Shown here one piece after another: positions 325 through 34,388 of a DNA stretch of 64,000 bases. The notes beneath the pieces are model-generated. The model was given only the letters and a program-made list of their open reading frames with translations, did not search any database and had not been told where the DNA came from. The stretch is from Bryobacteraceae bacterium (GTDB taxonomy: Bacteria > Acidobacteriota > Terriglobia > Bryobacterales > Bryobacteraceae). Made by a program: the position numbers and the translations under genes. How positions within the stretch are numbered: the stretch's first letter is position 1; every line of letters starts with the position of its first letter. The DNA lies in assembly GCA_963770345.1 (NCBI GenBank), contig CAVYPH010000013.1, positions 140,280 through 204,279 on the forward strand. The letters run 5' to 3'.

Positions 325-687
325 GTGATGACTGCATCCGACTTTCGCCGAATTGCGTTGAGCTTGAAAGGCGCCGAAGAGGGCTCGCACATGGGCGCGG
401 CCGACTTCCGCGTGGGAGGCAGAATATTCGCCACGCTCGCTTCGGAAAAACAAGGGTACGGCAACCTCATGCTCACGCCGGAACAGCAGGCGGACTTCGT
501 TGCGGAACAGCCAGACATTTTCTTGCCCATCGCGGGCGGTTGGGGAAGGATGGGAGCGACCCACATCCGGCTGGACAAGGCAAACGCGGATGTTCTCGCG
601 GGCGCCTTGCACACGGCATGGAAACTACGAGTGGAGAAGAACGCGAAGACCGCGGGAAAAAAGCGCGCGCGGCGTGTCATCGAGTGA
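325..687 (+). CDS. MmcQ/YjbR family (DUF419-like) protein
   Basis: Starts directly after the upstream stop. MTASDFRRIALSLKGAEEGSHMGAADFRVGGRIFATL... resembles the YjbR/MmcQ N-terminal signature. Confidence 0.6.
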   Translation: MMTASDFRRIALSLKGAEEGSHMGAADFRVGGRIFATLASEKQGYGNLMLTPEQQADFVAEQPDIFLPIAGGWGRMGATHIRLDKANADVLAGALHTAWKLRVEKNAKTAGKKRARRVIE

Positions 688-2210
688 GCCCCGCCAGTTG
701 TTGCACAGTCTGAAATGTATCCGCATCGGCGGCGGACTTATCCGTCCGGTACCGCTTCACCCGGGCGAATCGCAACGCCAATCCGCTGATGTATCGCGGG
801 CTTACCTGGATCTCGTTGAACGCAATTTCGGCGACCAACTTCGGTTCCACGTAAACGGTGTAGTTGTCGCGTCCGATTTCCAGCTTCAGCAGCTCCTGCG
901 TTTGCCAGGCCAGCATCTCGTCGGTGAGTCCCTTGAAGGTTTTGCCGAGCATGGCGAAGCCGCCTTTTTCCGTATCGCGGGCACCCAGATGCAGGTTGCT
1001 GAGCCAGCCGTGCCGCCGGCCGTTGCCCCATTCCGCTGCGAGAATGACCAGATCGAGGGTGCGCGGACTCTTTACCTTCAGCCAACTCTGACCGCGTGCG
1101 CCCGCCGCGTAGGGAGCCGCTGTCGATTTGGCCATTATGCCTTCGTGGCCTTGGCGCAGCGCGGTATCGAAGAATTCGGCCGCCTTTTCGGGATTCGCCG
1201 TGATCGATGTGCGGCACCACCAGATTCGGTGCAAGTTCGGCGAGTGTTCCGAAACGCTCGCGCCTGCGGCTCATCGAGAAGGGACGTCCCGTTCAGATAG
1301 AGCAAGTCGAACCAGAACGGCGAGAGCGGCAGTTCGGTTCGCATGCGTTCCACGTCCAGCTTGCGGCCGAAACGGCGCATCGTTATTTGGAAAGGATTTG
1401 GCCGGCCGTCCGGCTGCAGGCTGATGACTTCGCCATCAAGGATCAGGTCCTTTGCGGGCAGCTCGCGGGTTGCTTCCACGATCTCAGGCACCGCGGCCGT
1501 TACGTCGTTGAGGCTGCGTGAATAAACAATCACCTCATCGCCGGACCGGTGCACCTGGATGCGAGCGCCGTCCAGCTTCCATTCGAGTGCAGCCTCGCCG
1601 AGCTCGCCGATGGCTTCCGCCGCGTCCTCTGCGGTCTGCGCCAGCATCGGTTGTACCGGCCGGAAAAGTTGCACGTCATACGTGGAGAGACCGGCCTCGC
1701 CTTGCTCCAACACAGCGCGGGCGACCGGTGGAATGGCTCCGGCCATCATCGCCGCGCGGCGGATCCTTTCGAGTGGGATATGCGAGACGCGCGCCACGGC
1801 CTCCAGCATGATGCCTTCGAGCGCTCCCTGACGAAGCTCCCCGCCAAGCAGACCCGATCAAGAAACGCTGCTCGTCTTCAGTGGCGCGCGAGAAAATGAC
1901 TTTCAGCAATTCCAGCTTGCGGCCCGCCGAGCCTGAGCCTTGCGTAGACTTGAGCGATTCAAACGCGCGATCTACTTCCAGCAGTTCGAGGCTAGGCTCC
2001 GCCGCCGGAGCGCCTGCCTACATCGCGCAACGTCGCGTAACCGATCCCGATGCGGCCCTGGCGCGTGCTGCCGCTGAGGAACGACACCGCAATCTCGACC
2101 TCCTCAGGCTGGAGCTGTTCGAGCAGGGCGGCGATCAGGCCGATTTTCTCCAGGCGCTTCGTAGTGGAGGCCACGCGGCCGGACGTCGCCACGACGTGCG
2201 AAAGCTGCAT
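677..2210 (-). pseudogene. ATP-dependent DNA ligase (LigB/Cdc9 type) disrupted by about 4 frameshifts
   Basis: Five minus-strand frame segments read consecutively as one ligase of about 511 aa. Segment 1: MQLSHVVATSGRVASTTKRLEKI...YATLRDVG (2210 to ~2015). Segment 2: APAAEPSLELLEVDRAFESL...ATEDEQRFLIG (to ~1853). Segment 3: LLGGELRQGALEGIMLEAV...EWKLDGARIQVH (KxDG adenylation motif)...FWFDLLYLNGTSLLD (to ~1280). Segment 4: SRRRERFGTLAELAPNLVVPH (to ~1210). Segment 5: TSITANPEKAAEFF..GHEGIMAK..SWLKVK...RFARVKRYRTDK (to 677). Confidence 0.85.
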
Positions 2211-2709: not shown

Positions 2710-3687
2710 ATGCTGTTATACGGCAATTCCGGAGACGATTTCTTGGCGAAAATTGCGGTTGAGTTAGAAAGGGCGTTGGCCACGCGCTCAGTCAACGGAA
2801 CTCCCGGCGGTGCCACGGCGCGCAGACTTGCCCAAGGCGACGGCTGGACGGTGTCCGACGTCGTCTGCACGTCGGGGCCTCGGGATCGCCCTTTCGAAGA
2901 GCAGCACTCACACGTCGGAATTGCCATTGTCGCGGCGGGCAGCTTTCAATACCAATCCCGGGCTGGCCGCGGGCTGATGACGCCAGGTTCGCTTCTGCTC
3001 GGCAATGCAGGTCATTGTTTCGAATGCGGACACGAACATGGAACGGGAGACCGCAGCCTCTCGTTCGGATACGCCCCGGATTATTTTGAGAGACTTGCAG
3101 CCGACGCCGGAATCCGTGGTGTAAGGGTGGACTTCCCAGTGGTCCGCATTCCGCCATTGCGCGAGTTATCACCACTGATTGCGCGAGCCTGCGCCGGCCT
3201 GATCGGATCCGTGAACGTCCCGTGGGAGGAACTCAGCGTCGAATTAGCGGCGCTGGCGCTACAACTCGCGGGCGGCCTCGCACCCGATGCGTGCAGCGTA
3301 CCGCCAAACGCCCTGGCGCGGGTATCCCGGACCGTGCGCGACATCGAGCGCGAGCCCGGTAACGGGTTAACACTTGGAAGGCTGGCAAGGGAAGCGGGTC
3401 TGAGCCCGTATCACTTTCTCCGTACTTTCGAGCGCACCACGGGTGTGACTCCACACCAATACGTTCTACGCATGCGTCTCCGTGAAGCAGCCGTGCAGTT
3501 GGCCGCCGGGCAGGCCAAGGTCCTCGACATCGCGCTCGATAGCGGCTTCGGCGACGTATCGAATTTCAACCGCACGTTCCGCGCCGAGTTCGGTGTCAGT
3601 CCACGGCTGTACCGCAGGGCGGCCCAGTCGAACCGCCCTCATCCTTCAACTATTTGTCTTTTCTCACGATATCGATGCTTCCCTTGA
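2710..3687 (+). CDS. AraC family transcriptional regulator
   Basis: C-terminal AraC HTH: LGRLAREAGLSPYHFLRTFERTTGVTPHQYVLRMRLREAAVQL...DIALDSGFGDVSNFNRTFRAEFGVSP. The N-terminus is a cupin-like ligand domain. Start is uncertain because ATG 2710 abuts the divergent DinB start. Confidence 0.8.
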   Translation: MLLYGNSGDDFLAKIAVELERALATRSVNGTPGGATARRLAQGDGWTVSDVVCTSGPRDRPFEEQHSHVGIAIVAAGSFQYQSRAGRGLMTPGSLLLGNAGHCFECGHEHGTGDRSLSFGYAPDYFERLAADAGIRGVRVDFPVVRIPPLRELSPLIARACAGLIGSVNVPWEELSVELAALALQLAGGLAPDACSVPPNALARVSRTVRDIEREPGNGLTLGRLAREAGLSPYHFLRTFERTTGVTPHQYVLRMRLREAAVQLAAGQAKVLDIALDSGFGDVSNFNRTFRAEFGVSPRLYRRAAQSNRPHPSTICLFSRYRCFP

Positions 3688-4093
3688 AGTATGCTTCGTC
3701 GTCAATGGTGATGCCCGCCGTTGTGATGTTGCCGACGAGCTGACCATCTTTTCGAATAATAACTTTCAGTTCGGCATCGATGTTGCCGTTAACAGTCCCA
3801 AGCACCGTCACTTCGCGCGCCTTGATGTCGGATTTCACTTTTGCATTTGGTCCGACCGTCAGGCTATGACCCGGAACCAGCAGTTTGCCTTCCACCTCCC
3901 CGTCGAGGAAGAGATCTTCTTTGCTCAAAATCTCGCCCTTGATCACCATCCCCCGACCGATATTCGCCACGGTTCGCGGCGCTGCTGGTGGAGGAGGTGC
4001 TGCCTGTTGCGGAAGAGGAGCAGTGTAAGGTTTTGTTTCGGCTGGTCGCTGCTGCGGTTCTGGCTGCTTTGTATCCTTGCGTTTTTCCCACAT
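3650..4093 (-). CDS. Bactofilin (polymer-forming cytoskeletal protein)
   Basis: Pro-rich N-terminus followed by the bactofilin beta-helix repeat pattern: VIKGEILSKEDLFLDGEVEGKLLVPGHSLTVGPNAKVKSDIKAREVTVLGTVNGNIDAELKVIIRKDGQLVGNITTAGITIDDEAYFKGSIDI. Confidence 0.8.
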   Translation of the reverse strand: MWEKRKDTKQPEPQQRPAETKPYTAPLPQQAAPPPPAAPRTVANIGRGMVIKGEILSKEDLFLDGEVEGKLLVPGHSLTVGPNAKVKSDIKAREVTVLGTVNGNIDAELKVIIRKDGQLVGNITTAGITIDDEAYFKGSIDIVRKDK

Positions 4094-4222
4094 GGGAAGA
4101 GTCTCCTTTTCTTACGTATGATTTCGACTCTGAAAGTTCTCCCCCCGCTTCATACATTCTAGTGCGGTCGAGCGAAGCGTGGTTGAATTTGTGGATACTG
4201 GTCAAGGAGGGCCTCCGAATTC

Positions 4223-4729
4223 ATGTTCTGTCCTGCTTGCGGTCAAGCGAATGTCGATCAAGCGAAGTTTTGCACTGGATGCGGCAACAATCTGACGCAG
4301 TATCAGGCCGTATTTGCGCCCCCCGCTGCTGCCCCTCCGCAGCCGGAGCCCGTACCGGAACGTAAGCCGGCCGTAGATCCGTTCGGTAATCCGATCAATA
4401 CTCCGGGCGCTGTACCGGTTCCGCCGCCTGCTTCAACCCCGGTGCCGCCATTACCAATATATTCAACGCCGGCGCCTTCAGCGCCGCCTCCAACACCATT
4501 GCCTCCAACCATGGAGCAGCTAATTTCCTCTGCCCCACCCCCTCCACCCGTCTCCTCAATTCCAGTTGCGCCGCCTGCGGTTTTTCAAGCGCCCGTCCCT
4601 GTTGCAGCCAAATCGGCAGGCATCGTTGGTCTTCTCGTCTGGCTCCTGCTCGGCATCGCCGCCGGCGGTGGCGGCGCATACCTGGTTATCCACGAAAAAG
4701 CCGCCTCGGCGTCGGCTCCTTCACATTAA
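4223..4729 (+). CDS. Zinc-ribbon protein with Pro-rich linker and C-terminal TM anchor
   Basis: MFCPACGQANVDQAKFCTGCGNNL (CxxC..CxxC zinc ribbon), then a long P/A-rich segment, then the hydrophobic helix GIVGLLVWLLLGIAAGGGGAYLVI. Confidence 0.6.
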   Translation: MFCPACGQANVDQAKFCTGCGNNLTQYQAVFAPPAAAPPQPEPVPERKPAVDPFGNPINTPGAVPVPPPASTPVPPLPIYSTPAPSAPPPTPLPPTMEQLISSAPPPPPVSSIPVAPPAVFQAPVPVAAKSAGIVGLLVWLLLGIAAGGGGAYLVIHEKAASASAPSH

Positions 4730-4837
4730 AATCATTTAACAAACGGAATAATAGCATCCGAAGCCTGGATGTGAGAGGTAGTATCACCAGAGGGCCGACA
4801 ATTCGGCTAATTCTGTTCTGTAAAGAGGACTCTAAAC

Positions 4838-5077
4838 ATGAATCGACGAAAGTTCGGTATGGCACTTGGAAGCGCTGTAGCGGGTTTGGCCGCGGCGGCA
4901 AAACTGATGGCTGACGACGCCCCACCCAAGAAAGTGAAGGCTGCGAAGCACGATTGCAAGGGTAACAATGCTTGCAAGGGTCAGGGCGGCTGCAAGACCG
5001 GTGACAACGGTTGCAAAGGCAAGAACTCCTGCAAAGGCAAGGGTGGTTGCGCGGTTCCTCCGAAAAAAGATAAGTAA
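4838..5077 (+). CDS. bufA: Secreted 6-Cys Lys/Gly-rich peptide; bufferin-like (6/12-Cys type) RiPP precursor
   Basis: AAGAGGA Shine-Dalgarno lies upstream of the ATG. Signal peptide MNRRKFGMALGSAVAGLAAAAKLMA has an RRxF motif. Core is DDAPPKKVKAAKHDCKGNNACKGQGGCKTGDNGCKGKNSCKGKGGCAVPPKKDK. The gene lies immediately upstream of DoxX, DUF692 and DUF2063 genes. Confidence 0.7.
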   Translation: MNRRKFGMALGSAVAGLAAAAKLMADDAPPKKVKAAKHDCKGNNACKGQGGCKTGDNGCKGKNSCKGKGGCAVPPKKDK

Positions 5078-5104
5078 GAGGGGCTGTTGTAGTTTCCAGA
5101 TTAT

Positions 5105-5142
5105 TCTTTGTTGCGGGTCTTTCCTGGCCCGCAACAAAGAAG
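5105..5142 (+). promoter_or_regulatory. Intercistronic stem-loop after the precursor gene (possible attenuator, partial terminator or mRNA stabiliser)
   Basis: Perfect inverted repeat ctttgttgcggg (5107-5118) / cccgcaacaaag (5129-5140). It extends by 2 A-T pairs and has a 10-nt loop. It lies 28 nt after the precursor stop and 19 nt before the DoxX start. There is no clear U-tract. Confidence 0.5.
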
Positions 5143-5160
5143 CATTAACGTCTATTTCCC

Positions 5161-5616
5161 ATGCTCGAATCTCTCTTGCGGCGGAGCTCCGCCATCGCGG
5201 CCGCGCTAGCCTTCCTCCCTCCTCTTCTCACGCGGTTGGTGATCGGCCAGGCGTTTCATCTCACCGGTCACGGTAAGCTGGTAAACTTTGATCGCACGGT
5301 CGATTTCTTCACTAGCCTGGGCATCCCGTTTCCCCACGCAAACGCCGCGTTCATAGCGAGTCTGGAGTTTGTGGGCGGTCTCTGTTTGATGCTGGGTCTC
5401 GGCACGCGCATTTTCGCCGGGCTTCTGTCGTGCAGCATGATCGTTGCGTTGATGACAGCCGACAAAGCCGATTTCGTGTCGAAATTCTGGTCGGCGATCA
5501 CCGACGTCACATCGTTCGTGTACCTGTTATTCTTAATTTGGCTGGTGGTGTATGGCCCCGGCCCGGTCAGTTTGGACGCGCTCATTGGAAGATGGTACCG
5601 GGCGCGGCGTAAATAG
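5161..5616 (+). CDS. DoxX family membrane protein (BufD-like)
   Basis: Four predicted TM helices with DoxX-like sequence: RLVIGQAFHLTGHGKLVNFDRTVDFFTSLGIPFPHANAAFIASLEFVGGLCLMLGLGTR. Confidence 0.75.
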   Translation: MLESLLRRSSAIAAALAFLPPLLTRLVIGQAFHLTGHGKLVNFDRTVDFFTSLGIPFPHANAAFIASLEFVGGLCLMLGLGTRIFAGLLSCSMIVALMTADKADFVSKFWSAITDVTSFVYLLFLIWLVVYGPGPVSLDALIGRWYRARRK

Positions 5617-5628
5617 GAGTTCCGGCTG

Positions 5629-6498
5629 ATGGCAAACCGTTGGGGATATCCGGATTTAGGATTTGGAATCGGATTACGAACCCCGCACTTCAATCACATC
5701 CTGGAAAATCATCCGCCTATCGATTGGTTCGAGATCCTGTCAGAGAATTACATGGACACGAGCGGGCGTCCGTTGTGGGTACTCGACCAGATCGCCGAGC
5801 GCTATCCCGTAGTGCTGCACGGCGTGTCCATGTCGATTGGCAGCACCGATCCACTCGACTTCGAATATTTGCGCAAGCTGAAAGAACTGGCCAAGCGCAT
5901 CAACGCGCGGTGGATTTCCGACCATCTTTGCTGGACCGGCGTAAACGGCCTCAATGTTCACGATCTGCTGCCGATGCCTTACACGGATGAATCTCTCCGG
6001 TACACCATCGAGCGGGTTCGGCAGGTGCAGGATTATCTCGAGCGCCCGATTGCGTTGGAGAATGCTTCCACTTATCTCGAGTTCAGCGCATCTTCCTGGG
6101 CGGAGTCGGATTTCATCGCAACATTGTCGCAGGAGGCCAACAGCGGCATCCTGCTCGACGTAAACAACGTGTACGTCAGCTCGTTCAATCACGGCTTCGA
6201 TGCGAAAGCGTACATCGATAAAATTCCCGGCGATCGAGTTATTCAGATCCATCTCGCCGGCCACACGCACAAAGGTACGCACATCCTGGATACGCACAGC
6301 GACTACGTGATCGACACGGTTTGGGACCTCTATCGCCACGCTTATCAGCGAATGGGCGGGGTATCGACGCTGCTCGAATGGGACGCGTCCATTCCGAGTT
6401 TCGAAATTGTTCATGCCGAAGCTCTAAAGGCGCGGGAGCATCGCCAGAAGGCCGAAGCCGAGGCGCGAGTAGAAGAGGTTGCGTCGTATGCGGACTGA
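5629..6498 (+). CDS. bufB: DUF692 family multinuclear non-heme iron oxidase (MNIO; BufB/MbnB-like)
   Basis: AGGAG lies upstream of the ATG. LGFGIGLRTPHF..IDWFEILSENYM..VVLHGVSMSIGS..ISDHLCWTG..IALENASTYL..GILLDVNNVYVS..IQIHLAGHT..ILDTHSDYV..STLLEWD is the characteristic DUF692 TIM-barrel motif set. Confidence 0.85.
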   Translation: MANRWGYPDLGFGIGLRTPHFNHILENHPPIDWFEILSENYMDTSGRPLWVLDQIAERYPVVLHGVSMSIGSTDPLDFEYLRKLKELAKRINARWISDHLCWTGVNGLNVHDLLPMPYTDESLRYTIERVRQVQDYLERPIALENASTYLEFSASSWAESDFIATLSQEANSGILLDVNNVYVSSFNHGFDAKAYIDKIPGDRVIQIHLAGHTHKGTHILDTHSDYVIDTVWDLYRHAYQRMGGVSTLLEWDASIPSFEIVHAEALKAREHRQKAEAEARVEEVASYAD

Positions 6499-7288
6499 TC
6501 TCGCCGGCATTCAGAGCTGGATGCAGGCCGTTATTGTGTCTGATCCGGAATCCGAAATTCCTGAACAGGAAGCGCGGGAACTGGTGCTTCCATCGAACAC
6601 GCTCTCACCGATGGAACGCGTTGACATCTATCGCAGCATGTATCTGTCGCGAATGGTGGAAGCGCTGGAAATCGATTATCCGGGTTTGGCGCAGTATCTT
6701 GGAACCGAAGGTTTCTATAATCTGGTTTCGCGGTACGTGGATGCATATCCGTCGCGAAGCTACACGTTGAATCGGCTAGGCGACCGCCTCCCTGATTTCA
6801 TCGCCACCCTGAACGACGTCAAGCGAAGGGATTTTCTGCACGACCTGGCCCGGCTGGAATCAGCTTTGAACGTGGCCTTCGACGCCGAGGAGGCACCACC
6901 GCTCACGGTGGAGGCCATCGCCGCGGTGCCGCAGGACGCCTGGGAAAATGCGCGCATGAAGCCGATTGCCGCGCTCCATTTGCTGGAATTCCAATATCCG
7001 GTGAGTGAGTATCTTGGCTCAGTGTTGGACGAAGCACCGGCGCCCAGCACGAGAAAAAAGCGCACGTGGGTGGCTGCTTACCGCAAAGATTACGGCTTGC
7101 GGCGGCTGGATCTGAGTCTTCCCGAATATGAACTGCTAAGCGACTTGGTGGCCCAGAAAACGGTAGGAGAGGCGATCATAGCCGCCTGCACTCGCAAGGG
7201 AAAGGCCAGAGCGAAGGAAAGCGATTTGTTCGCCTGGTTTCAAAATTGGATGGCGCGAGGGTTGTTCCAGAAAGTGGAAATTTCCTAG
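6479..7288 (+). CDS. bufC: DUF2063 domain protein (BufC-like MNIO partner)
   Basis: Overlaps the MNIO gene by 20 nt. LAGIQSWMQAVIV...ERVDIYRSMYLSRMVEALEIDYPGLAQYLG...FYNLVSRYVDAYPSRSYTLNRLGDRLPDFI is typical of DUF2063 N-terminal domains. Confidence 0.75.
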   Translation: MRRMRTDLAGIQSWMQAVIVSDPESEIPEQEARELVLPSNTLSPMERVDIYRSMYLSRMVEALEIDYPGLAQYLGTEGFYNLVSRYVDAYPSRSYTLNRLGDRLPDFIATLNDVKRRDFLHDLARLESALNVAFDAEEAPPLTVEAIAAVPQDAWENARMKPIAALHLLEFQYPVSEYLGSVLDEAPAPSTRKKRTWVAAYRKDYGLRRLDLSLPEYELLSDLVAQKTVGEAIIAACTRKGKARAKESDLFAWFQNWMARGLFQKVEIS

Positions 7289-8109
7289 TTGCCTGCCGCA
7301 CCGGGGCCGGCAATCTGCGCTAGCCAAGCTTCCTTCATTTCACCTAACGTAGACTTAGTAGCATTCCCCAAAGCTTGTTCGAAATCGTCCGCTTGAAGCG
7401 CCGCGGTCATTACCTCGATTCCATTCCGCTCCACCAGAAACTTCACGAACGACTGCGACATGACATAGAAAGGAGCGGCGACACCTCGACGATCCTCGCC
7501 CATACTGGGAGGCTCGCCCACCGCGCCAACGTATTGCACCACAGCCTTGCCGCCATCACGGGTAAGCCAACGCGCCGCCGCCTTGTCCACACCTTTATTG
7601 CCGTCCCTGGCGAAAATGGCGCCGTCATATCCGCCGATGTGTTCGCTTACGTAACTCTGCACGAATGACGCAAATCCCTCGGAAAGCCAAGTCTGACAAT
7701 GACGGCACGGTTCCAGGATATGCAGCGTCTCGTGAAGGTACGGAGCGGACCGGTTCTGAACGCGCTCCAACGGTAGGTAGATCACCCGTGAGCGCGAGTG
7801 CGAAATATCCACGTGGCCGCTGACGAAATATTGGATCTTATCCGTGCGGGCTGGAAGTTTGAGATAAGTCCGGATATCCTCAATGCCTTTGTTCACCAAC
7901 GCCGCAAAGGCCTGCCGCTGTTCTTCCGTTAGCGTGTCCTGCTCAAAGAACACAATGGCGGAGTCCATTTCGCAGCGAACGCCGGTGTCGCGCATATCCT
8001 GGGCGAGCTGGCGATCGGCCATCCACGCCTCGCGATAAGACTGCGGCCATGCGGGTACGGCCGCCACGAGCAGCATACAACCGGCGAGGTGCAATACTGT
8101 TCGCGCCAT
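7285..8109 (-). CDS. Secreted hypothetical protein with HExxH motif (putative zinc peptidase)
   Basis: Signal peptide MARTVLHLAGCMLLVAAVPAWPQ and an internal PYLHETLHILE (HExxH). It is convergent with bufC, with a 4-nt overlap. Confidence 0.5.
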   Translation of the reverse strand: MARTVLHLAGCMLLVAAVPAWPQSYREAWMADRQLAQDMRDTGVRCEMDSAIVFFEQDTLTEEQRQAFAALVNKGIEDIRTYLKLPARTDKIQYFVSGHVDISHSRSRVIYLPLERVQNRSAPYLHETLHILEPCRHCQTWLSEGFASFVQSYVSEHIGGYDGAIFARDGNKGVDKAAARWLTRDGGKAVVQYVGAVGEPPSMGEDRRGVAAPFYVMSQSFVKFLVERNGIEVMTAALQADDFEQALGNATKSTLGEMKEAWLAQIAGPGAAGN

Positions 8110-8148
8110 CCGATGATATTCCGACGACGTAATTCTAGCTGGAGTTAC

Positions 8149-9521
8149 ATGAAACCCATTCTTTTACTGCTGGCCGGCGCGCTGGCCGCCTCGGCAACCG
8201 AACCGAAGGAACTACAGTGGCAGGGTTGGTCCGACGGCGTATTCGCTCAGGCGAAACACGAGCATCGCTTTGTCCTGTTAGATTTGCAGGCGGTGTGGTG
8301 CCATTGGTGCCACGTGATGGATAAGACCACTTACCAGGACCCCACTGTTGTTGCACTCCTGCAGTCCAATTACATTGCAGTCCGTGTGGACCAGGACTCG
8401 CGTCCGGATCTCGCCAGCCGCTATGAGGATTATGGCTGGCCGGCGACAGTCGTCTACGACGGCAACGGCAAGGAGATTGTCAGGCGTTCGGGCTATCTTG
8501 CGCCAGGAGTTGATGAATAACTATCGGCTTCAGTACGACGCGAAGCAGGGAAGTTGGGGGCTCGACCAGAAATATCTCGAATGGAATTCCGTCGAATACT
8601 CAATGGAGCTGGCGCGGCAGGGCGACAAACAGGCGGAGCGCATGGCCCGAGTCACTCTTACGAAACAGCTCAACCTGCTCGATCCGGCGTGGGGCGGCGT
8701 TTACCAATATTCAACCGATGGCGACTGGAAGCATCCGCATTTCGAAAAGATCATGCTGATGCAGTCGCAGAATCTGCGCCTGTACGCGCTGGCCTATGCA
8801 CAGTGGCGCGATCCTGCATACGGCAGGCGAAATCGCCCGCTATCTGAAGACATTTCTTGCTAGTCCCGATGGGGTATTCTAGACAAGCCAGGATGCCGAT
8901 CTCGTCGAGGGCGTGCACAGCGCCGCCTATTTCCATTTGAACGATCGCGGCCGGCGCAAACTCGGAATTCCACGTGTCGACAAGCACATCTATTCGCGTG
9001 AAAACGGTTGGGCGATTGCAGCGTTGGCCACGCTTTATTCAGCCACTCAGGAAAAGGAATATCTCGACGAAGCCGTGGGCGCGGCTAATTGGATCGCGGC
9101 TAATCGCACGCTCGGCGAAGGCGGATTCCGGCATGATGAGAAGGACCCTGCGGGCCCATATCTTTCAGACACGCTGGCTATGGGCCGAGCCTTTCTTACG
9201 CTCTATTACTCAACGCAAGATAGTACTTGGCTAGAGCGTACGCGAACGGCCGCAGGCTTCATGCAGGCGAATTTTCGATCACCGGATGACCTGGGTTTTC
9301 TCACCGCCAAAACGCCGACCGATCAGGCCTATAGGCCGCATCCCGAACGCGATGAAAACATTGAGATGGTTCGGTTCTGCAATCAGCTTTTTCACGTGAC
9401 CAATGACGCGAAGTTCGAAGCCGCTGCGCGATCCGCAATGCGCTATGCCGCTACACCGGAAATCGCCAGGAGGTTCCCTTCGGCTGCTGTGCTGTTATCA
9501 GAGCTATCTGAAGCGAGGTAA
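8149..9521 (+). pseudogene. Thioredoxin-domain protein (DUF255/YyaL-like) disrupted by 2 frameshifts and 1 TAG
   Basis: Segment 1: signal peptide plus LDLQAVWCHWCHVMDKTTYQDP..VRVDQDSRPDL..YGWPATVVYD (frame 1, to ~8505). Segment 2: QELMNNYRLQYDAKQGSWG..DPAWGGVYQYSTDGDWKHPHFEKIMLMQSQNLRLYALAY (frame 2, to ~8818). Segment 3: TAGEIARYLKTFLASPDGVF-TAG(8880-8882)-TSQDADLVEG..ENGWAIAALATLY... to 9521 (frame 0). Confidence 0.8.
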
Positions 9522-9636
9522 GGTCTAAGCTGTATCTCGGTACTGGTAATTCATAGCCAATCTAAGATCGCTTGCCCATGGTACGGCCATCCATAAAGAG
9601 CTAGTGTAGAACCTGACGGGAATCGAGGGTCCCGGT

Positions 9637-11922
9637 ATGGATTGTTTGCGTTGCGGTACAAAGCTCGCGATCTTAAACCGCATCTCGGGCGGCGCGTTTT
9701 GCTCGCCGGAACACCGCACGCAGTTTCTCGCCCACCAAGACGAAGTGATGTTAGGCCGTCTCAAGGCGCAAGCGGGGCGGCTGAAAAAGATTCGCGCTCC
9801 GATTCCAGGTTCTCTCGGTGAGCTTATCGCCATTTGTCCTTATATGGGGCAAATGGAAGGCTACCCTTCGAGTGAAGCGCTGCCCAGCGTCTTTCAGGGA
9901 TTCAACGGATTTCCACCGGTAATCATCGCAGCCGGCACTCCGGCGCCGCCGGTCACGGTTCAAATTCCGGCAGCATCGTTCCAGTTCACGCGGCTCAACG
10001 CCAGCAACGTACCGGACGCACTTCCGCCAATCGCGGCACTCGATTCCGAACACTCGACGATCTTTCTTCCGATAACCCGACGCGCGGTTGTCGAGCCGAC
10101 TCCGCGGCTACTGCATGAGCTGTTTGCAGCGAGAGCGCTGACCGCAATCGGACCGCGGACTGTGAGTGTCAAGGCCGGCCCTAGTCCGGCGGCGCTGATG
10201 TCGGCTGTCCTCTTTCCGTCCTCACAACTGCCGCAGTGGGTCGAAAAGGATTTCCCGGTGTCGCCTTTCCTGCCGGCGCGCGTGGCCATCGCATACTCCG
10301 GCAGCGATATTCCCACCGGTCTCGAGCCAGTGGGCTTTACGTGCTTGATGATGGCGCCCGCATCGCGGAAGATCGCGCCATCGCTCGATTTATGTAGCCG
10401 GTTTGCGCAAATTCGAGTGCGGGCGGCTCAGCCGCAGCTCGACTCCCTGAAGCCAGCGGACTTATCCGATTGGAGCGTGGAAGAGCCAGCCAATCTGCCC
10501 GCGCCAAGAACCTCCGCGCTCGTCTTCACTCCGCGATTTGGAGCGATGATTCTGCTGCCCCCAACGAGCAGCCTGTCGGCTCCTGGAACCCTGCCGATCG
10601 CCTCACAGGCGTTGCCTCTGCCTTCCAGGGCGCCACTCTGGAGTCTTCACCCGAAGACGGCGCCAGGGACATCCGCGATTATCTTCACTCCGCGATTCGG
10701 TGCGATGATTCACGTGCCTCCAACGAGCAGCCTGTCGGATCCCGGAACCCTGCCGATCGCCTCACAAGCGTTGCCTCTGCCTTCCAGCGCGCCATTCTGG
10801 AGTCTTCACCCGAAGACGGCGTTTCTTAGTCTTGAATTTTCGAATCGCATCGCGGCCTATCGATTTTTCGCTCGCAGTTCCGGCGCGAAGAAGCTTTCCA
10901 TAAATGCCGTAACCACGTTGCATGCCGACCCGGTGGTATTCACGCCATCGATGAGCATCGCTGCTCCGGGCCCGGCGGTTTGCAGCGCGGTGGTAACTTC
11001 GTTTACCGCGGTTGAACACCCGGAGAAAATGTCCAGGCAGATTGCTTCACTGCCGCCGGACATTTCGATGGTAGGGCCGGGGTTGGCGTCTTGTGTGATG
11101 CCCAGCGCGATGCCGGCAATGGCAGAGACCACGCAGAGTATCCGGTTACCGGAAGCGGTAGGCCCGCACGATTTGAGGGCTGAGGAGCCTCTTCAGTTCG
11201 AGCGAAAAACTTTGAAGCCGGATTTCAAAGTCATTTCGGTTCGTTCACAGGCCAAAATCCCGGAACCCTCGCGGCGTTGGTGGGCGCTGGTGCCGATGCC
11301 CGCTCAGAGAGTGTTGATGGCTCTCCCGATCCTTGTGGGAATCAGCGTTTACTTCCTGGGCGGAAAGGCATCCACGGCGGCGGCCAAGCGGCTTCCGATG
11401 AGTCCTGTTTCTGAAAGCTTCGCGGCTGGCCTGAAATCGTGGGATGGAGCAGCCGGCTGGTCGAAAACGTGGAAGAACGATCCTGAAGCCGGCGCCGAAC
11501 CCGGTTCACTGGCTCTGCTCACCACGACGCAACCGTTCGCGGACTACGAACTGGGTTTCAACGGCGCGATTGAGAAGAAGAGCATGGGATTCGCGGTGCG
11601 CGCGGCCGACCTGAAGAATTATTATGCGGTGAAGATCTCGTATCGTAAGTCGGGCAAGAATCCAGGCTTGTATATCGTCAGATATCCGGTGATCGCGGGA
11701 AAGAGCGAGAAGCCAACGGAAGTGCCACTTCGCGTCGAAATGAACCCCGAAGCGGAGATGCAAGTGAAATTAGATGTAAGTGGTGACACGTACACGCTCT
11801 CGGTTGGTGGTCAGGTCGCTGATTCCTGGAATGAAGCCCGGCTCACCCATGGCGCAATCGGATTTTTTGCCGCCAAGGATGAACGTTTCCGCGTGCATAA
11901 TGTCAACGTAATTCCCGAATAG
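9637..11922 (+). CDS. Large membrane-anchored hypothetical protein (N-terminal zinc ribbon, repeat region, C-terminal beta-sandwich-like domain)
   Basis: MDCLRCGTKLAILNRISGGAFCSPEHR zinc ribbon. TM helix WWALVPMPAQRVLMALPILVGISVYFLG. The C-terminal GFAVRAADLKNYYAVKISY...GAIGFFAAKDERFRVHNVNV resembles LamG/DUF1080-type jelly rolls; that resemblance is inferred. Confidence 0.6.
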   Translation: MDCLRCGTKLAILNRISGGAFCSPEHRTQFLAHQDEVMLGRLKAQAGRLKKIRAPIPGSLGELIAICPYMGQMEGYPSSEALPSVFQGFNGFPPVIIAAGTPAPPVTVQIPAASFQFTRLNASNVPDALPPIAALDSEHSTIFLPITRRAVVEPTPRLLHELFAARALTAIGPRTVSVKAGPSPAALMSAVLFPSSQLPQWVEKDFPVSPFLPARVAIAYSGSDIPTGLEPVGFTCLMMAPASRKIAPSLDLCSRFAQIRVRAAQPQLDSLKPADLSDWSVEEPANLPAPRTSALVFTPRFGAMILLPPTSSLSAPGTLPIASQALPLPSRAPLWSLHPKTAPGTSAIIFTPRFGAMIHVPPTSSLSDPGTLPIASQALPLPSSAPFWSLHPKTAFLSLEFSNRIAAYRFFARSSGAKKLSINAVTTLHADPVVFTPSMSIAAPGPAVCSAVVTSFTAVEHPEKMSRQIASLPPDISMVGPGLASCVMPSAMPAMAETTQSIRLPEAVGPHDLRAEEPLQFERKTLKPDFKVISVRSQAKIPEPSRRWWALVPMPAQRVLMALPILVGISVYFLGGKASTAAAKRLPMSPVSESFAAGLKSWDGAAGWSKTWKNDPEAGAEPGSLALLTTTQPFADYELGFNGAIEKKSMGFAVRAADLKNYYAVKISYRKSGKNPGLYIVRYPVIAGKSEKPTEVPLRVEMNPEAEMQVKLDVSGDTYTLSVGGQVADSWNEARLTHGAIGFFAAKDERFRVHNVNVIPE
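10510..10827 (+). repeat. Tandem duplication of a 159-nt (53-codon) coding unit, 2 copies
   Basis: TSALVFTPRFGAMILLPPTSSLSAPGTLPIASQALPLPSRAPLWSLHPKTAPG is followed by TSAIIFTPRFGAMIHVPPTSSLSDPGTLPIASQALPLPSSAPFWSLHPKTA. Nucleotide identity looks high by eye. Confidence 0.85.
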
Positions 11923-33116: not shown

Positions 33117-34388
33117 CTACAGTTCAGCCACGGTCTCGATCACGGCATCGCCGTTACGAAACGCCTCTTCCCGAATCTCAATACCAAGTCCCGGAGTCTC
33201 CGGAGCCGTGACATACCCGTCCACCGGCACGGGCACGTTCTTCAGGAAATGCGGGTATACATCGTTATAGAGATGGTAGACGCTCTCCATGATGTAGAAG
33301 TTGGTCAACGAGGTCGCGGTATGAATCGACGAGTACCAAAGGATCGGTCCACCACCCGTGTGCGGCGCCGTCGGAATTTTGTACGTGTCCGCCATATCGG
33401 AAATCTTCTTCGCTTCTGAAATCCCGCCGCACCAGGTCACGTCGTACATCACCACGCCCACAGCGTGTTGTTCGAACATTTCGCGGAACCGGAATCGGGT
33501 CGCCAGCCGCTCGCTGATACAGATGGGAATCGACGTGGCCCGCGCCAGCGACGCATACGCACTGAGGTTGTCGGCCAGCATGGGATCTTCCAGCCACATG
33601 ATTCCGTACGGTTCGAGCGAATGCGCGATCTGCATCGAACACGGCAGGTTCCAACGGCTGCTCAAATCGAGCGCAATCTCGATATCATCGCCGGCCGATT
33701 TCCGCATTCGCTGGATCGGGTCGAGCGACTGCCTCAGATCCGCCTGCGTGATAAATGTGCCGCCGTGCCGGGCCAGCGCGTTGATCGGACCGCGGTCGTA
33801 AGGATATATCTTGATCCCCCGGATTCCGCGCTTCAGCAGGAAATCGGCCAGCTTTTCCGGGTCGGTATGTTCGCGCATACCGTTGATCGGCCACCCGTTC
33901 ATGGTGTTGTACACCATCAGCTTCTCCTGCGCTTTGCCGCCCAGCAGCTTATACACAGGAAGGCCCGACGCTTTGCCAAGAATGTCCCACTGCGCGATGT
34001 TAATAGCCGTCAGCATCCGAAAGTCGGCGCCGCCCCAGGGCTGGTAGGAGATGTGGTAAAAAATATCCTGCCACAAACGATCGATCTTGGTTGGATCCTT
34101 TCCCAGCAGCAACGGCGCCAGCTCATTCAGCGCGCCGCGGTGAGCGTCGTATCCGGGATACGATTCGCCGGTGCCGATAATACCTTTATCTGTATGCAAC
34201 CGGACCCACATCCAATTGGGAGAAATTCCCTGGATCTTCAGATCCGCACGGAACCGCACGGCCTCGATTTTCGTGATCTTCAGCGGACCCACGCCATCGG
34301 CGGCGGCGCGCGCTTCTTTGGTCCACAGCCCGGCCACGGTCCCTGCGCCTGCTGCTGCTAAAAAATTCCTGCGACTGATCGCTTGCAT
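33117..34388 (-). CDS. Enolase-superfamily (mandelate racemase/muconate lactonizing, sugar-acid dehydratase-like) enzyme with twin-arginine signal
   Basis: MQAISRRNFLAAAGAGTVAGLW is a Tat-like signal. KITKIEAVRF...GIIGTGESYPG, DIEIALDLSSRW, MWLEDP and ICISERL match MR/MLE motifs. Confidence 0.8.
   Translation of the reverse strand: MQAISRRNFLAAAGAGTVAGLWTKEARAAADGVGPLKITKIEAVRFRADLKIQGISPNWMWVRLHTDKGIIGTGESYPGYDAHRGALNELAPLLLGKDPTKIDRLWQDIFYHISYQPWGGADFRMLTAINIAQWDILGKASGLPVYKLLGGKAQEKLMVYNTMNGWPINGMREHTDPEKLADFLLKRGIRGIKIYPYDRGPINALARHGGTFITQADLRQSLDPIQRMRKSAGDDIEIALDLSSRWNLPCSMQIAHSLEPYGIMWLEDPMLADNLSAYASLARATSIPICISERLATRFRFREMFEQHAVGVVMYDVTWCGGISEAKKISDMADTYKIPTAPHTGGGPILWYSSIHTATSLTNFYIMESVYHLYNDVYPHFLKNVPVPVDGYVTAPETPGLGIEIREEAFRNGDAVIETVAEL

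Follow-up and report, generated by a model that had tools for sequence, protein, structure and literature searches.

Bufferins are a recently recognized and very widespread bacterial defense against copper stress. Bufferin 2 of Caulobacter vibrioides (buf2ABC, CCNA_02999-03001) derives from a six-Cys precursor with a signal peptide (Buf_6/12Cys, or BufA2) and is a 'Cys-Lys captophorin', a group defined in PMC13097082. Four of its Cys are modified (-4.03 Da each), and CysI and CysVI form a disulfide; copper induces the system, which protects against copper (PMC11626156). Bufferin 1, encoded by the gig operon (bufA1B1C1D1) of Caulobacter and Cupriavidus, is a copper-binding peptide of the periplasm that contains 5-thiooxazoles; bufferin modification does not require DoxX (PMC11626156). 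The order bufA-bufB-bufC has been reported as strictly conserved, and Buf2 clusters as lacking an adjacent sigma/anti-sigma pair (PMC12452194).

The locus described here lies in a 64-kb stretch of acidobacterial DNA (hereafter the window). With Caulobacter bufferin 2 it shares a six-Cys, signal-peptide-bearing precursor with C-K-G motifs, a BufB-type multinuclear non-heme iron oxidase (MNIO), a DUF2063 partner, and the absence of an adjacent sigma/anti-sigma pair; unlike bufferin 2, it has DoxX, between precursor and MNIO, and an acidobacterial host. Bufferin 1 consists of the same four gene families, DoxX included, but has a four-Cys DUF2282 precursor, the order A-B-C-D and SigF/NrsF control. 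Acidobacterial Buf2 clusters from Candidatus Koribacter versatilis and Acidobacterium appear in Table S2 of PMC12452194; they share the phylum and the same four families, but their consecutive accessions indicate the canonical order precursor-MNIO-DUF2063-DoxX. The description of the host clade as uncharacterized, made in an earlier note on this DNA, is thus correct for experiments only.

Other MNIO systems show a looser likeness. The HvfABC(X)/oxazolin system of Haemophilus influenzae and the fontiphorin system FonABC (EGKCG 'Lys-Cys' captophorins) combine an MNIO with a DUF2063 partner, often with DoxX, and an exported copper-binding product, but their precursors carry an EGKCG repeat rather than C-K-G. 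TglHI (3-thiaglutamate) and MbnBC (methanobactin) share the MNIO fold and ligand set, but act on precursors without a signal peptide and perform other chemistry.

Genome organization and gene order

The cluster consists of four co-directional genes at window positions 4838-7288 (Table 1). According to the ORF coordinates, 83 nt separate the precursor gene from doxX and 12 nt separate doxX from bufB, and bufB and bufC overlap. The ORF list contains all four reading frames that the earlier note had reported, with its longer version of the last (6479-7288), and the order precursor-DoxX-MNIO-DUF2063 is confirmed by the coordinates and by relatives. The overlap is real, but the 20 nt first given for it require a TTG start at 6479 (269 aa); the ATG at 6488, which leaves 11 nt, is likelier. 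Gene callers chose this ATG in the related loci L082 and L087-L090, and in the window it is preceded, at a distance of 11 nt, by GAAGAGG. No additional precursor, MNIO, DUF2063 or DoxX gene occurs elsewhere in the 64-kb window. Pfam annotation of the window found no sigma/anti-sigma pair or metal regulator adjacent to the cluster, as the earlier note had remarked of metal-responsive regulators and as published for Buf2, and no copper gene nearby.

Table 1. Coordinates of the cluster genes and flanking elements in the window.
Feature	Position	Strand	Evidence
Upstream region and 5' UTR of precursor gene	4730..4837	+	Sequence comparison
bufA-like precursor, 79 aa, 6 Cys	4838..5077	+	NCBIfam BufA2, homologues
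Stem-loop directly 3' of precursor gene	5104..5141	+	Folding, shuffles
doxX (bufD-like), membrane protein, 151 aa, between precursor and MNIO	5161..5616	+	Pfam
bufB, multinuclear non-heme iron oxidase (MNIO, DUF692), 289 aa	5629..6498	+	NCBIfam, Pfam
bufC, MNIO partner (DUF2063 / PME type 1), C-terminal RRE-like domain, 266 aa	6488..7288	+	Pfam, AF2/Foldseek

The closest relatives are from Acidobacteriota (Bryobacteraceae or Terriglobia). DoxX stands directly 5' of bufB in all loci with a BufB at least 75% identical, except one on a cut contig; the remaining loci are mostly A-B-C or A-B-C-D, and DoxX before bufB is rare among them. The A(-A)-D-B-C unit was found in three different genomic contexts, and its flanks are not conserved. 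The window DoxX is 56-95% identical to same-clade DoxX encoded 5' of bufB and 31-47% identical to DoxX encoded 3' of bufC or bufB elsewhere. We conclude that the order (A)n-DoxX-B-C is typical of the Bryobacteraceae-like clade. The non-canonical order first noticed at this locus is therefore genuine, but is the habit of a whole clade rather than a one-off. With DoxX sitting between A and B, these soil Acidobacteriota form a clade-wide exception to the published fixed bufA-bufB-bufC order, and precursor searches limited to the gene just before the MNIO miss such clusters. A metagenome scan with DoxX returned two loci only.

The MNIO enzyme, its partner and DoxX

The bufB product scores 357 bits against NCBIfam MNIO_BufB (cutoff 310) and 362 bits against Pfam MbnB_TglH_ChrH (PF05114; cutoff 25), providing the DUF692 match that had been named as a test of the assignment. 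All seven motifs listed for the enzyme are present once each and in order: HGVS at residue 64, SDH at 97, LEN at 143, DVNN at 177, HLAGH at 208, DTH at 221 and EWD at 250. Among solved relatives the best is 3BWW (1.2e-54), followed by TglH (8HCI) and then MbnB. The residue following the catalytic Asp is Ala in the window (EWDAS); across the clade Ala predominates at this site, with Asp or Glu in some members. Cys-Lys MNIOs are reported to have Asp at that site (BufB2 Asp251; PMC13097082), with the positions equated here through the 3BWW alignment only.

A second match that had been named as a test, that of bufC to Pfam DUF2063, was also obtained (62.3 bits, cutoff 27.2). PDB sequence searches with bufC, either as a single sequence or as a 41-sequence profile, returned no match, and fold comparison alone succeeded. 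The AF2 model of BufC (pLDDT 87.5) superposes on TglI (8HI7_A, Foldseek E = 1.3e-6, probability 1.0) and matches NGO1945 (3DEE, E = 1.1e-5, TM 0.73 on target, probability 1.0), with TbiB1, a lasso-peptide RRE, as a further but weak match (E = 0.7). DoxX scores 65.2 bits against Pfam DoxX (cutoff 23.6) and 64.9 bits against the NCBIfam HvfX-family model, under its cutoff of 80; it would be an accessory membrane protein, dispensable for modification.

The matches to these models and the conservation of the small ORF (see below) support the earlier reading of a bufferin-type MNIO RiPP cluster with a displaced DoxX in an acidobacterium, and we conclude that the locus very probably encodes the biosynthesis of a Buf2-type bufferin ('Cys-Lys captophorin'). 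Its gene content is nothing new in kind: the Buf2 family is already described, is catalogued in Acidobacteriota and is covered by an NCBIfam model, and its chemistry has been published. The invariant twin-arginine motif of the precursor is a more useful lead than the gene content.

Candidates from other MNIO pathways were rejected. For methanobactin, the MbnB score is 52.5 bits (cutoff 325), MbnC is missing and the precursor has a signal peptide. For HvfABC/oxazolin, HvfB and HvfC score 262 (cutoff 360) and 42 (cutoff 142), and the precursor is without the EGKCG repeat. For chryseobasin and aminopyruvatide, ChrH and ApyH fall far under their NCBIfam cutoffs.

Transcription and the hairpin behind the precursor gene

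The stem-loop 3' of the precursor gene has a 16-bp stem and a 6-nt loop and no U-tract. The segment 5070-5165 folds at -34 kcal/mol (z = -4.3), with 1 of 200 shuffles as stable. A strong hairpin of unrelated sequence occupies the same site in loci L002, L082 and L087-L090, and all loci of this kind have one behind the precursor gene, a feature that the earlier note did not mention. The hairpin at 5104-5141 is likely a transcript-end, attenuator or stabilizer element setting the precursor:enzyme mRNA ratio. Promoter and terminator scans yielded sites no more often than in shuffles, and this hairpin, being without a U-tract, was passed over. On the + strand the region upstream of the precursor shows no sigma-70 consensus, and Rfam returned no known RNA family on 4400-7600. 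The precursor gene is preceded by a ribosome-binding site (AAGAGGA, 4823-4829) and a small GCCGA-loop-TCGGC hairpin (4794-4807). The upstream region is nearly identical at the nucleotide level in the close relatives L082 and L091, an alignment informative among near-identical relatives only. Analogous small GGCC hairpins, none of them individually significant, occur 5' of other cluster-linked precursor genes.

We propose that the precursor would be made in excess from a short transcript ending or pausing at the hairpin, and that DoxX-B-C would be translated as a tightly coupled unit, via read-through or its own start. Alternatively, the precursor and doxX-bufB-bufC could be separate transcription units, with the hairpin as a full terminator and the enzymes serving several precursors in trans, including orphan ones encoded elsewhere in the genome; to speak of an A-D-B-C operon would then exaggerate the linkage. 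D-B-C occurs without a precursor within 5 kb in L003-L005, close precursor paralogues are found as orphans beside unrelated genes, the hairpin of L087-L090 carries an A-tract and a U-tract as intrinsic terminators do, and the 83-nt spacer after the precursor gene is long compared with the 12 nt and overlap within D-B-C. Against these observations, the window hairpin is without a U-tract, the A-D interval yielded no promoter-like site, A is kept directly 5' of D in three independent genomic contexts, and partial read-through is the usual RiPP arrangement. We hold separate units to be a less likely, if serious, alternative. Separate units would alter regulation, not biochemistry.

Precursor peptide

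Unlike bufferin 2, the window precursor falls under the NCBIfam BufA2 cutoff (50.6 bits, E = 1.6e-13, cutoff 60). Its core (residues 26-79) has six Cys at positions 40, 46, 52, 59, 65 and 71, five of them within C-K-G/T motifs; C1 also lies in C-K-G, another difference from bufferin 2. The Cys spacing is 0-6-12-19-25-31, compared with 0-6-12-19-25-38 in proteobacterial BufA2. The C1-C5 part is the same as in Caulobacter bufferin 2 and in BufA2 of Legionella, Thiothrix and P. putida, whereas the step from C5 to C6 is 6 residues instead of about 13. Canonical BufA2 also has a hydrophobic strand and a distal C-x3-GGK tail, both missing here, which means that its fold and CysI-CysVI disulfide may not apply to the window peptide. 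In the AF2 model (pLDDT 56), the signal peptide alone is helical, and the core (pLDDT about 50) has no confident fold. Judged by sequence, the core is a compact variant, a point missed by the earlier note. Such a compact, Lys-rich six-Cys module offers a minimal substrate for working out which of the Cys are targets of a Cys-Lys MNIO.

Homologues of the precursor form at least 5,183 homologous clusters, and their neighborhoods bear out the expectation that the small ORF is conserved beside the cluster genes in relatives. The 63 short homologues show no variation at M1, N2, R3, R4, F6 or any of the six Cys, and a K-H pair ahead of C1 is likewise invariant in precursors of the window type. The core contains 26% K and 19% G; the consensus of its family has 24% and 19%, and a Legionella BufA2 20% and 19%. 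The core had been called unusually Lys/Gly-rich; this composition is instead the norm of a family with more than 5,000 clusters.

Signal peptide and export route

The signal peptide comprises residues 1-25 (MNRRKFGMALGSAVAGLAAAAKLMA, nt 4838-4912), with N-R-R-K-F at residues 2-6 and a basic K22 in the c-region ahead of LMA25. It has the sequence features of a Tat signal, namely RR-x-F, a weakly hydrophobic h-region and a basic c-region residue before an A-x-A-like site, where bufferin 2 has a Sec or lipoprotein signal. RRxF is present in 116 of the 120 closest homologues; when the wider MNIO clade (Acidobacteriota and Planctomycetota) is taken, about 46 of 80 precursors have it. Hydropathy of the h-region is 1.76 in the precursor and 1.36-1.75 in the Tat-motif ORFs of the window, compared with 2.33-2.82 in its Sec signals and 2.22-2.37 in proteobacterial BufA2 signals. 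The median is 1.87 in the RRxF group and 2.16 in the rest (p = 0.005, only indicative because the sequences are related). Canonical Tat motifs in four other ORFs of the window indicate that the host probably uses the Tat pathway; no tat genes were found in the 64-kb window. We conclude that the precursor carries what appears to be a conserved twin-arginine-type signal, a feature not described for the bufferin family and passed over by the earlier note. A literature search that paired twin-arginine signals with MNIO or RiPP precursors brought up no relevant work, its sole RiPP match being an engineered phage-display system.

The premature Sec export of a signal-bearing precursor is an unsolved problem in the bufferin literature, and Tat exports proteins after cytoplasmic maturation. 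The window precursor may represent, on balance, a large undescribed Buf2-type sub-family of Acidobacteriota and Planctomycetota that is exported by Tat and has a compact, probably unfolded core. If so, modification could finish before export, and the Tat signal would be a natural answer to the question of how a RiPP with a signal peptide avoids escaping before its cytoplasmic modification. This would be a first natural Tat-routed RiPP precursor, in a family whose lineages would have exchanged Tat (RRxF) for Sec (KK, lipoprotein) signals or the reverse.

A less probable reading is that MNRRKF provides the n-region charge of a Sec signal and doubles as a leader for the BufC RRE-like domain, with export by Sec. 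For bufferins, export of BufA1 via Sec and a role of the signal peptide in BufB-BufC recognition have been published (PMC12452194). Position +4 after RR is Gly, Thr or Ala, not Leu, and the curated Tat models (TIGR01409, PF10518; E up to 10) gave no match for the window N-terminus, although such short models are insensitive; the best TIGR01409 score, from a planctomycete homologue, is sub-threshold (13.1 bits, cutoff 16.7). Homologous precursors of Thermoanaerobaculia have KK at the RR position and must take another route. However, Sec n-regions tolerate any mix of K and R, yet R3, R4 and F6 are invariant, and RR goes together with F at +2 across two phyla. The h-region hydropathy fits the Tat signals of the window and not its Sec signals, and the KK-type homologues have more hydrophobic h-regions, as expected of Sec. 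For these reasons we consider Sec export of the window precursor rather unlikely and retain Tat export as the favored route.

Proposed maturation and function

The chemistry and metal specificity suggested for the window product are by analogy, with the mechanism for modification and copper binding inferred from the Caulobacter Buf2 and Fontimonas systems. A cytoplasmic BufB-BufC complex would bind the 79-aa precursor, and the BufC RRE-like domain may do so partly via the signal/leader. With O2 and its iron cluster, BufB-BufC would convert Cys of the C-K-G motifs by oxidation into 5-thiooxazoles, each with a mass change of -4.03 Da. Their spacing points to C2-C5 as the likely targets, and with C1 also in C-K-G, four to five heterocycles are expected. 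The modified peptide would be exported, in this clade via Tat rather than Sec as suggested by its signal, and cleaved after KLMA25. Once in the periplasm, the resulting roughly 5.4-kDa basic, probably flexible peptide would bind copper or a different thiophilic metal.

The product might instead guard against a non-copper stress (another thiophilic metal, or oxidative/sulfur stress linked to DoxX), or carry another number or kind of Cys modifications than Buf2. The absence of a copper gene or regulator nearby, the departures of the core from canonical BufA2 (C6 position, invariant K-H before C1, C-K-G at C1) and the Ala in place of the reported Asp after EWD would fit such a role, and MerC fusions and the discussion of DoxX leave other roles open (PMC12452194). 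We nevertheless think it unlikely, as all characterized MNIO-PME1 products bind copper and carry 5-thiooxazoles (PMC13097082) and BufB scores as a bufferin-maturase equivalog. That the small ORF encodes a Cys-rich peptide of the periplasm that stays unmodified, resembling a metallothionein or rich in disulfides, and is only incidentally adjacent to the enzyme genes, is highly improbable: orphan copies are common and AF2 shows no fold, but the C-K-G motifs fit the substrate class of Cys-Lys MNIOs, and among 80 GTDB loci chosen by MNIO similarity alone, 71 have a family precursor no more than 5 kb from the MNIO.

Gene content and family assignment

An earlier note had described a bufferin-like cluster of four genes in the window, and all four ORFs were found at the same coordinates and in one direction. 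The precursor and DoxX genes are separated by 83 nt and the DoxX and MNIO genes by 12 nt, while the MNIO and DUF2063 genes overlap.

Features of the window and their profile matches
Feature	Position	Strand	Remarks
ATP-dependent DNA ligase, split	677-1809	-	two overlapping frames; Pfam DNA_ligase_A_M in 1138-1809 and 680-1234, DNA_ligase_A_C in 680-1234
Small hairpin upstream of precursor	4794-4807		GGCC/GCCGA loop
Precursor (A)	4838-5077	+	79 aa
Region folded	5070-5165		-34 kcal/mol, z = -4.3
Stem-loop after precursor gene	5104-5141		16 bp
DoxX (D)	5161-5616	+	Pfam DoxX, 65 bits
MNIO (B, bufB)	5629-6498	+	Pfam MbnB_TglH_ChrH, 362 bits; NCBIfam BufB, 357 bits
DUF2063 (C, bufC)	6479-7288; start at ATG 6488 likelier	+	Pfam DUF2063, 62 bits
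DUF255/thioredoxin-like gene	8089-9521	+	Thioredox_DsbH, 86 bits; onward in frames 8348-8863 and 8913-9521
761-aa ORF	9637-11922	+	zinc-ribbon-like N-terminus; no Pfam match
ORF starting TRREFL	11947
ORF starting TRRNFLK	17402
ORF starting SRRNFL	33117-34388	-
ORF starting NRRRFF	34421

Profile searches placed the enzyme, DoxX and DUF2063 proteins far above the Pfam gathering scores. The MNIO also exceeds the NCBIfam equivalog cutoff (310 bits) for the "MNIO family bufferin maturase" BufB; its NCBIfam scores for HvfB, ApyH, ChrH and MbnB fall far under their cutoffs, and these identities were rejected. All seven catalytic motifs listed previously are intact, each occurring once and in the expected order. 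Among solved structures the DUF692 protein 3BWW comes closest (1.2e-54), with TglH and then MbnB next. The sole NCBIfam match of the precursor is "BufA2 family periplasmic bufferin-type metallophore" (E = 1.6e-13; 50.6 bits, below the cutoff of 60). The overlap between bufB and bufC stands, but its extent is probably 11 nt and not the 20 nt noted earlier, as bufC more probably starts at ATG 6488; a Shine-Dalgarno-like GAAGAGG lies 11 nt upstream of this codon, and gene callers picked the equivalent start in relatives.

The analysis establishes gene content, family membership, the intact catalytic motifs, the partner's fold, and the conservation of the precursor and its linkage to the enzyme genes; the bufferin-type identification was right. 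This kind of cluster is already known: it has an NCBIfam model of its own, and both its chemistry and examples from acidobacteria have been published. By its sequence, the window cluster is a variant in three respects, namely where DoxX lies, how compact the core is and that the signal is of twin-arginine type, and only the last, itself a prediction, could matter to the field.

Gene order across genomes

An MNIO scan of GTDB with one genome per species provided the best 80 loci (58-82% identical), from Acidobacteriota, Planctomycetota, Polyangiaceae, Bacteroidota/Ignavibacteria and Verrucomicrobiota. Together with metagenome contigs these made 99 loci (given L numbers below), and the four families were placed by HMMs on all ORFs. 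Among the 98 loci with a match, A-B-C was found in 54, A-B-C-D in seven, D-B-C in four, A-D-B-C in four plus two damaged or cut copies, A-A-D-B-C in three and D-A-B-C in one; four planctomycete loci were A-B-D-A(-C), and 19 were other or partial, with only precursor or DoxX and no MNIO, or cut by a contig end.

At BufB identities of at least 75%, DoxX lies directly upstream of bufB in all loci except L006, where the contig is cut. On contigs with close precursor homologues, the A(-A)-D-B-C unit occupies three unrelated contexts (L082; L087-L090; L093/L094), with the upstream flank of L082 syntenic with the window. We therefore conclude that the non-canonical order precursor-DoxX-MNIO-DUF2063 noted in the window, which recurs among close relatives, is real, conserved and clade-specific. 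The window DoxX is 31-47% identical to DoxX genes located after bufC or bufB in other loci and is the same accessory gene in a new place. In the published survey, the gene just before the MNIO was the only place searched for precursors (PMC12452194). Its Table S2 contains Buf2, MNIO, DUF2063 and DoxX with consecutive accession numbers in Koribacter and Acidobacterium; acidobacterial bufferin clusters were therefore already catalogued, in canonical order.

L087 (5247-5759) and L088 (5247-5946) carry the identical precursor and bufB and bufC genes of identical size, yet no DoxX gene was called in L087 and that of L088 is cut to 89 aa, while it is intact in L089 and L090; this fits a dispensable DoxX but could be assembly error. 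Within the window clade, twelve-Cys precursors stand between DoxX and bufB (L009, 3738-6622, and L006), unlike six-Cys precursors, which stand before DoxX. The planctomycete loci L053, L057, L068 and L077 (about 4200-9600) run precursor-MNIO-DoxX-second precursor, with DUF2063 further downstream, and the Thermoanaerobaculia locus L017 (211-2256) has a second MNIO-DUF2063 pair followed by a distinct 7-Cys signal-peptide ORF, in the order B-C-A.

Transcript architecture

A strong hairpin occupies the place of the window stem-loop in every A-D-B-C locus, although the sequences are unrelated; that of L087-L090 shows the A- and U-tracts typical of an intrinsic terminator. A D-B-C unit with no precursor within 5 kb is found in L003-L005. 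Orphan six-Cys RRxF precursor paralogues occur in L083-L086 and L095-L097 (precursors at 5001-5243, 3501-3737 and others), repeatedly adjoining a small ORF and a divergent gene that encodes an AhpC-TSA/DsbD_N thiol-disulfide protein; in L098 and L099 the orphan directly follows a histidine kinase and response regulator pair. These copies suggest modification in trans or separate regulation. Because D-B-C occurs without a precursor, orphan precursors exist and a hairpin intervenes, doxX-bufB-bufC appears to be the tightly coupled module and the precursor a semi-independent upstream cistron. Most likely, a short transcript would supply the precursor in excess and a part of transcription would read through into doxX-bufB-bufC, the usual RiPP arrangement. 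Small hairpins with a GGCC/GCCGA loop also lie 20-30 nt upstream of the start codon of cluster-linked precursor genes, in the window, L002, L089 and L093; their sequence varies from locus to locus, and individually the folds are not significant (z +0.5 to -2.6).

Precursor family and core

Precursor homologues in public data comprise more than 5,183 clusters, and those with named sources come from Bryobacteraceae, Blastocatellia and Thermoanaerobaculia. In relatives the small ORF is conserved and linked to the enzyme genes, as the earlier note's conservation check called for. Homologues are either six-Cys proteins of ~80 aa or twelve-Cys tandem duplications of ~125 aa. The consensus core of 63 short homologues is KHDCKGQNxCKGQGGCKTGDNGCxGKNSCKGKGGCAVP, with all six Cys invariant. 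The Lys/Gly content of the window core, previously called unusual, is normal for the family and close to that of proteobacterial BufA2 (K and G make up 26% and 19% of the window core, compared with 20% and 19% in a Legionella BufA2).

Three annotated proteobacterial plasmid clusters (Legionella, Thiothrix and Pseudomonas putida) served as canonical comparators. All three have the order precursor-MNIO-DUF2063, and their precursors carry Sec or lipoprotein signals, Cys at 0-6-12-19-25-38 and, past the fifth, a hydrophobic stretch and a C-x3-GGK tail. The window precursor has the first five Cys at identical positions, whereas the sixth is at 31, within an extra CKGKGGC unit, and the tail is absent; its BufA2 score is below cutoff because of this displacement and the missing tail. 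In the AlphaFold2 model only the signal-peptide helix is predicted, and the core, at a pLDDT of about 50, has no confidently modelled fold; such a model counts for little but is compatible with a flexible Gly/Lys-rich peptide, while published Buf2 models were reported as folded (PMC11626156). The precursors of the four planctomycete loci have a C-terminal helical extension, e.g., ...WKKARARFEELM...

Export signal

Each of the 63 short homologues begins with M-N-R-R-x-F, and RRxF is present in 116 of the 120 closest precursor clusters; of the four exceptions, three arise from wrongly called start codons, as verified for L082, which has MNRRRF upstream of the called start. Of 80 precursors from the MNIO clade at large, about 46 have RRxF, often as RRDFxK, and these belong to Acidobacteriota and Planctomycetota; Thermoanaerobaculia homologues have KK in place of RR and Polyangiaceae homologues have lipoprotein signals. 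Tat signals are defined by an S/T-R-R-x-F-L-K motif, a weakly hydrophobic h-region and a basic c-region. The window precursor has a Lys in the c-region, and its most hydrophobic 12-mer scores 1.76 (Kyte-Doolittle), compared with 1.36-1.75 for four window ORFs with canonical Tat motifs, 2.33-2.82 for five Sec-type window signals and 2.22-2.37 for proteobacterial BufA2 signals. Signals with RRxF are less hydrophobic than the others (medians 1.87 vs 2.16, p = 0.005, only indicative as the sequences are related). None of the curated Tat HMMs reached threshold with the precursor signals. One of the four Tat-motif ORFs is a confirmed aldo/keto reductase, and the host evidently uses Tat export widely.

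On these features we lean towards export of the precursor by Tat. The main rival reading is that MNRRxF is a leader element recognized by BufC, and the two are mutually compatible. No mention of a Tat signal on an MNIO substrate was found in the bufferin papers and literature searched. Some mechanism must exist against premature Sec export (PMC12452194); Tat export after cytoplasmic maturation would, if true, be one.

DUF2063 partner and proposed chemistry

Searching PDB sequences with the DUF2063 protein, as a single sequence and as a 41-sequence profile, gave no match. Its AlphaFold2 model (49 homologues) was confident (pLDDT 87.5, pTM 0.84), and Foldseek matched it to TglI, partner of the MNIO TglH (8HI7_A, E = 1.3e-6), to NGO1945 (3DEE, E = 1.1e-5, TM 0.73 on target), the founding DUF2063 structure, and weakly to the leader-binding RRE protein TbiB1. 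The predicted fold is that of a two-domain MNIO partner of the class "PME type 1" (PMC12452194; PMC13097082).

By analogy with characterized systems (PMC11626156; PMC13097082), BufB-BufC would oxidize Cys of C-K motifs to 5-thiooxazoles, the product would be exported and its signal peptide then removed, and the mature peptide would bind copper in the periplasm; DoxX would be dispensable for modification. Modification of Caulobacter Buf2 affects its four central Cys, and a disulfide links CysI to CysVI (PMC11626156). Because the first Cys of the window precursor also lies within a C-K-G motif and the sixth is displaced, its Cys may be modified in another pattern, with 4-5 of them as heterocycles. 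In the window's BufB clade Ala follows the catalytic Asp, and Asp was reported at that site in Cys-Lys MNIOs (PMC13097082), a possible discrepancy presuming that the positions correspond.

Genomic context

No further bufferin genes were found within the 64-kb window. Neighbours within 4 kb encode an AraC-family regulator, a bactofilin, a zinc-ribbon membrane protein, an unknown secreted protein and a thioredoxin-like protein whose gene is broken; in the other genomic contexts examined, none of them is linked to the cluster. Like published Buf2 clusters (PMC12452194), this one lacks a sigma/anti-sigma pair. The split DNA ligase is either a pseudogene or an assembly indel error. The DUF255/thioredoxin-like gene, whose last frame has weak glycosyl-hydrolase-like matches, also seems frameshifted, which makes it the second such gene close to the cluster; all four bufferin genes are intact. 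Within the 761-aa ORF, a segment of roughly 55 aa is duplicated in tandem (...FTPRFGAMI..PPTSSLS.PGTLPIASQALPLPS.AP.WSLHPKTA...).
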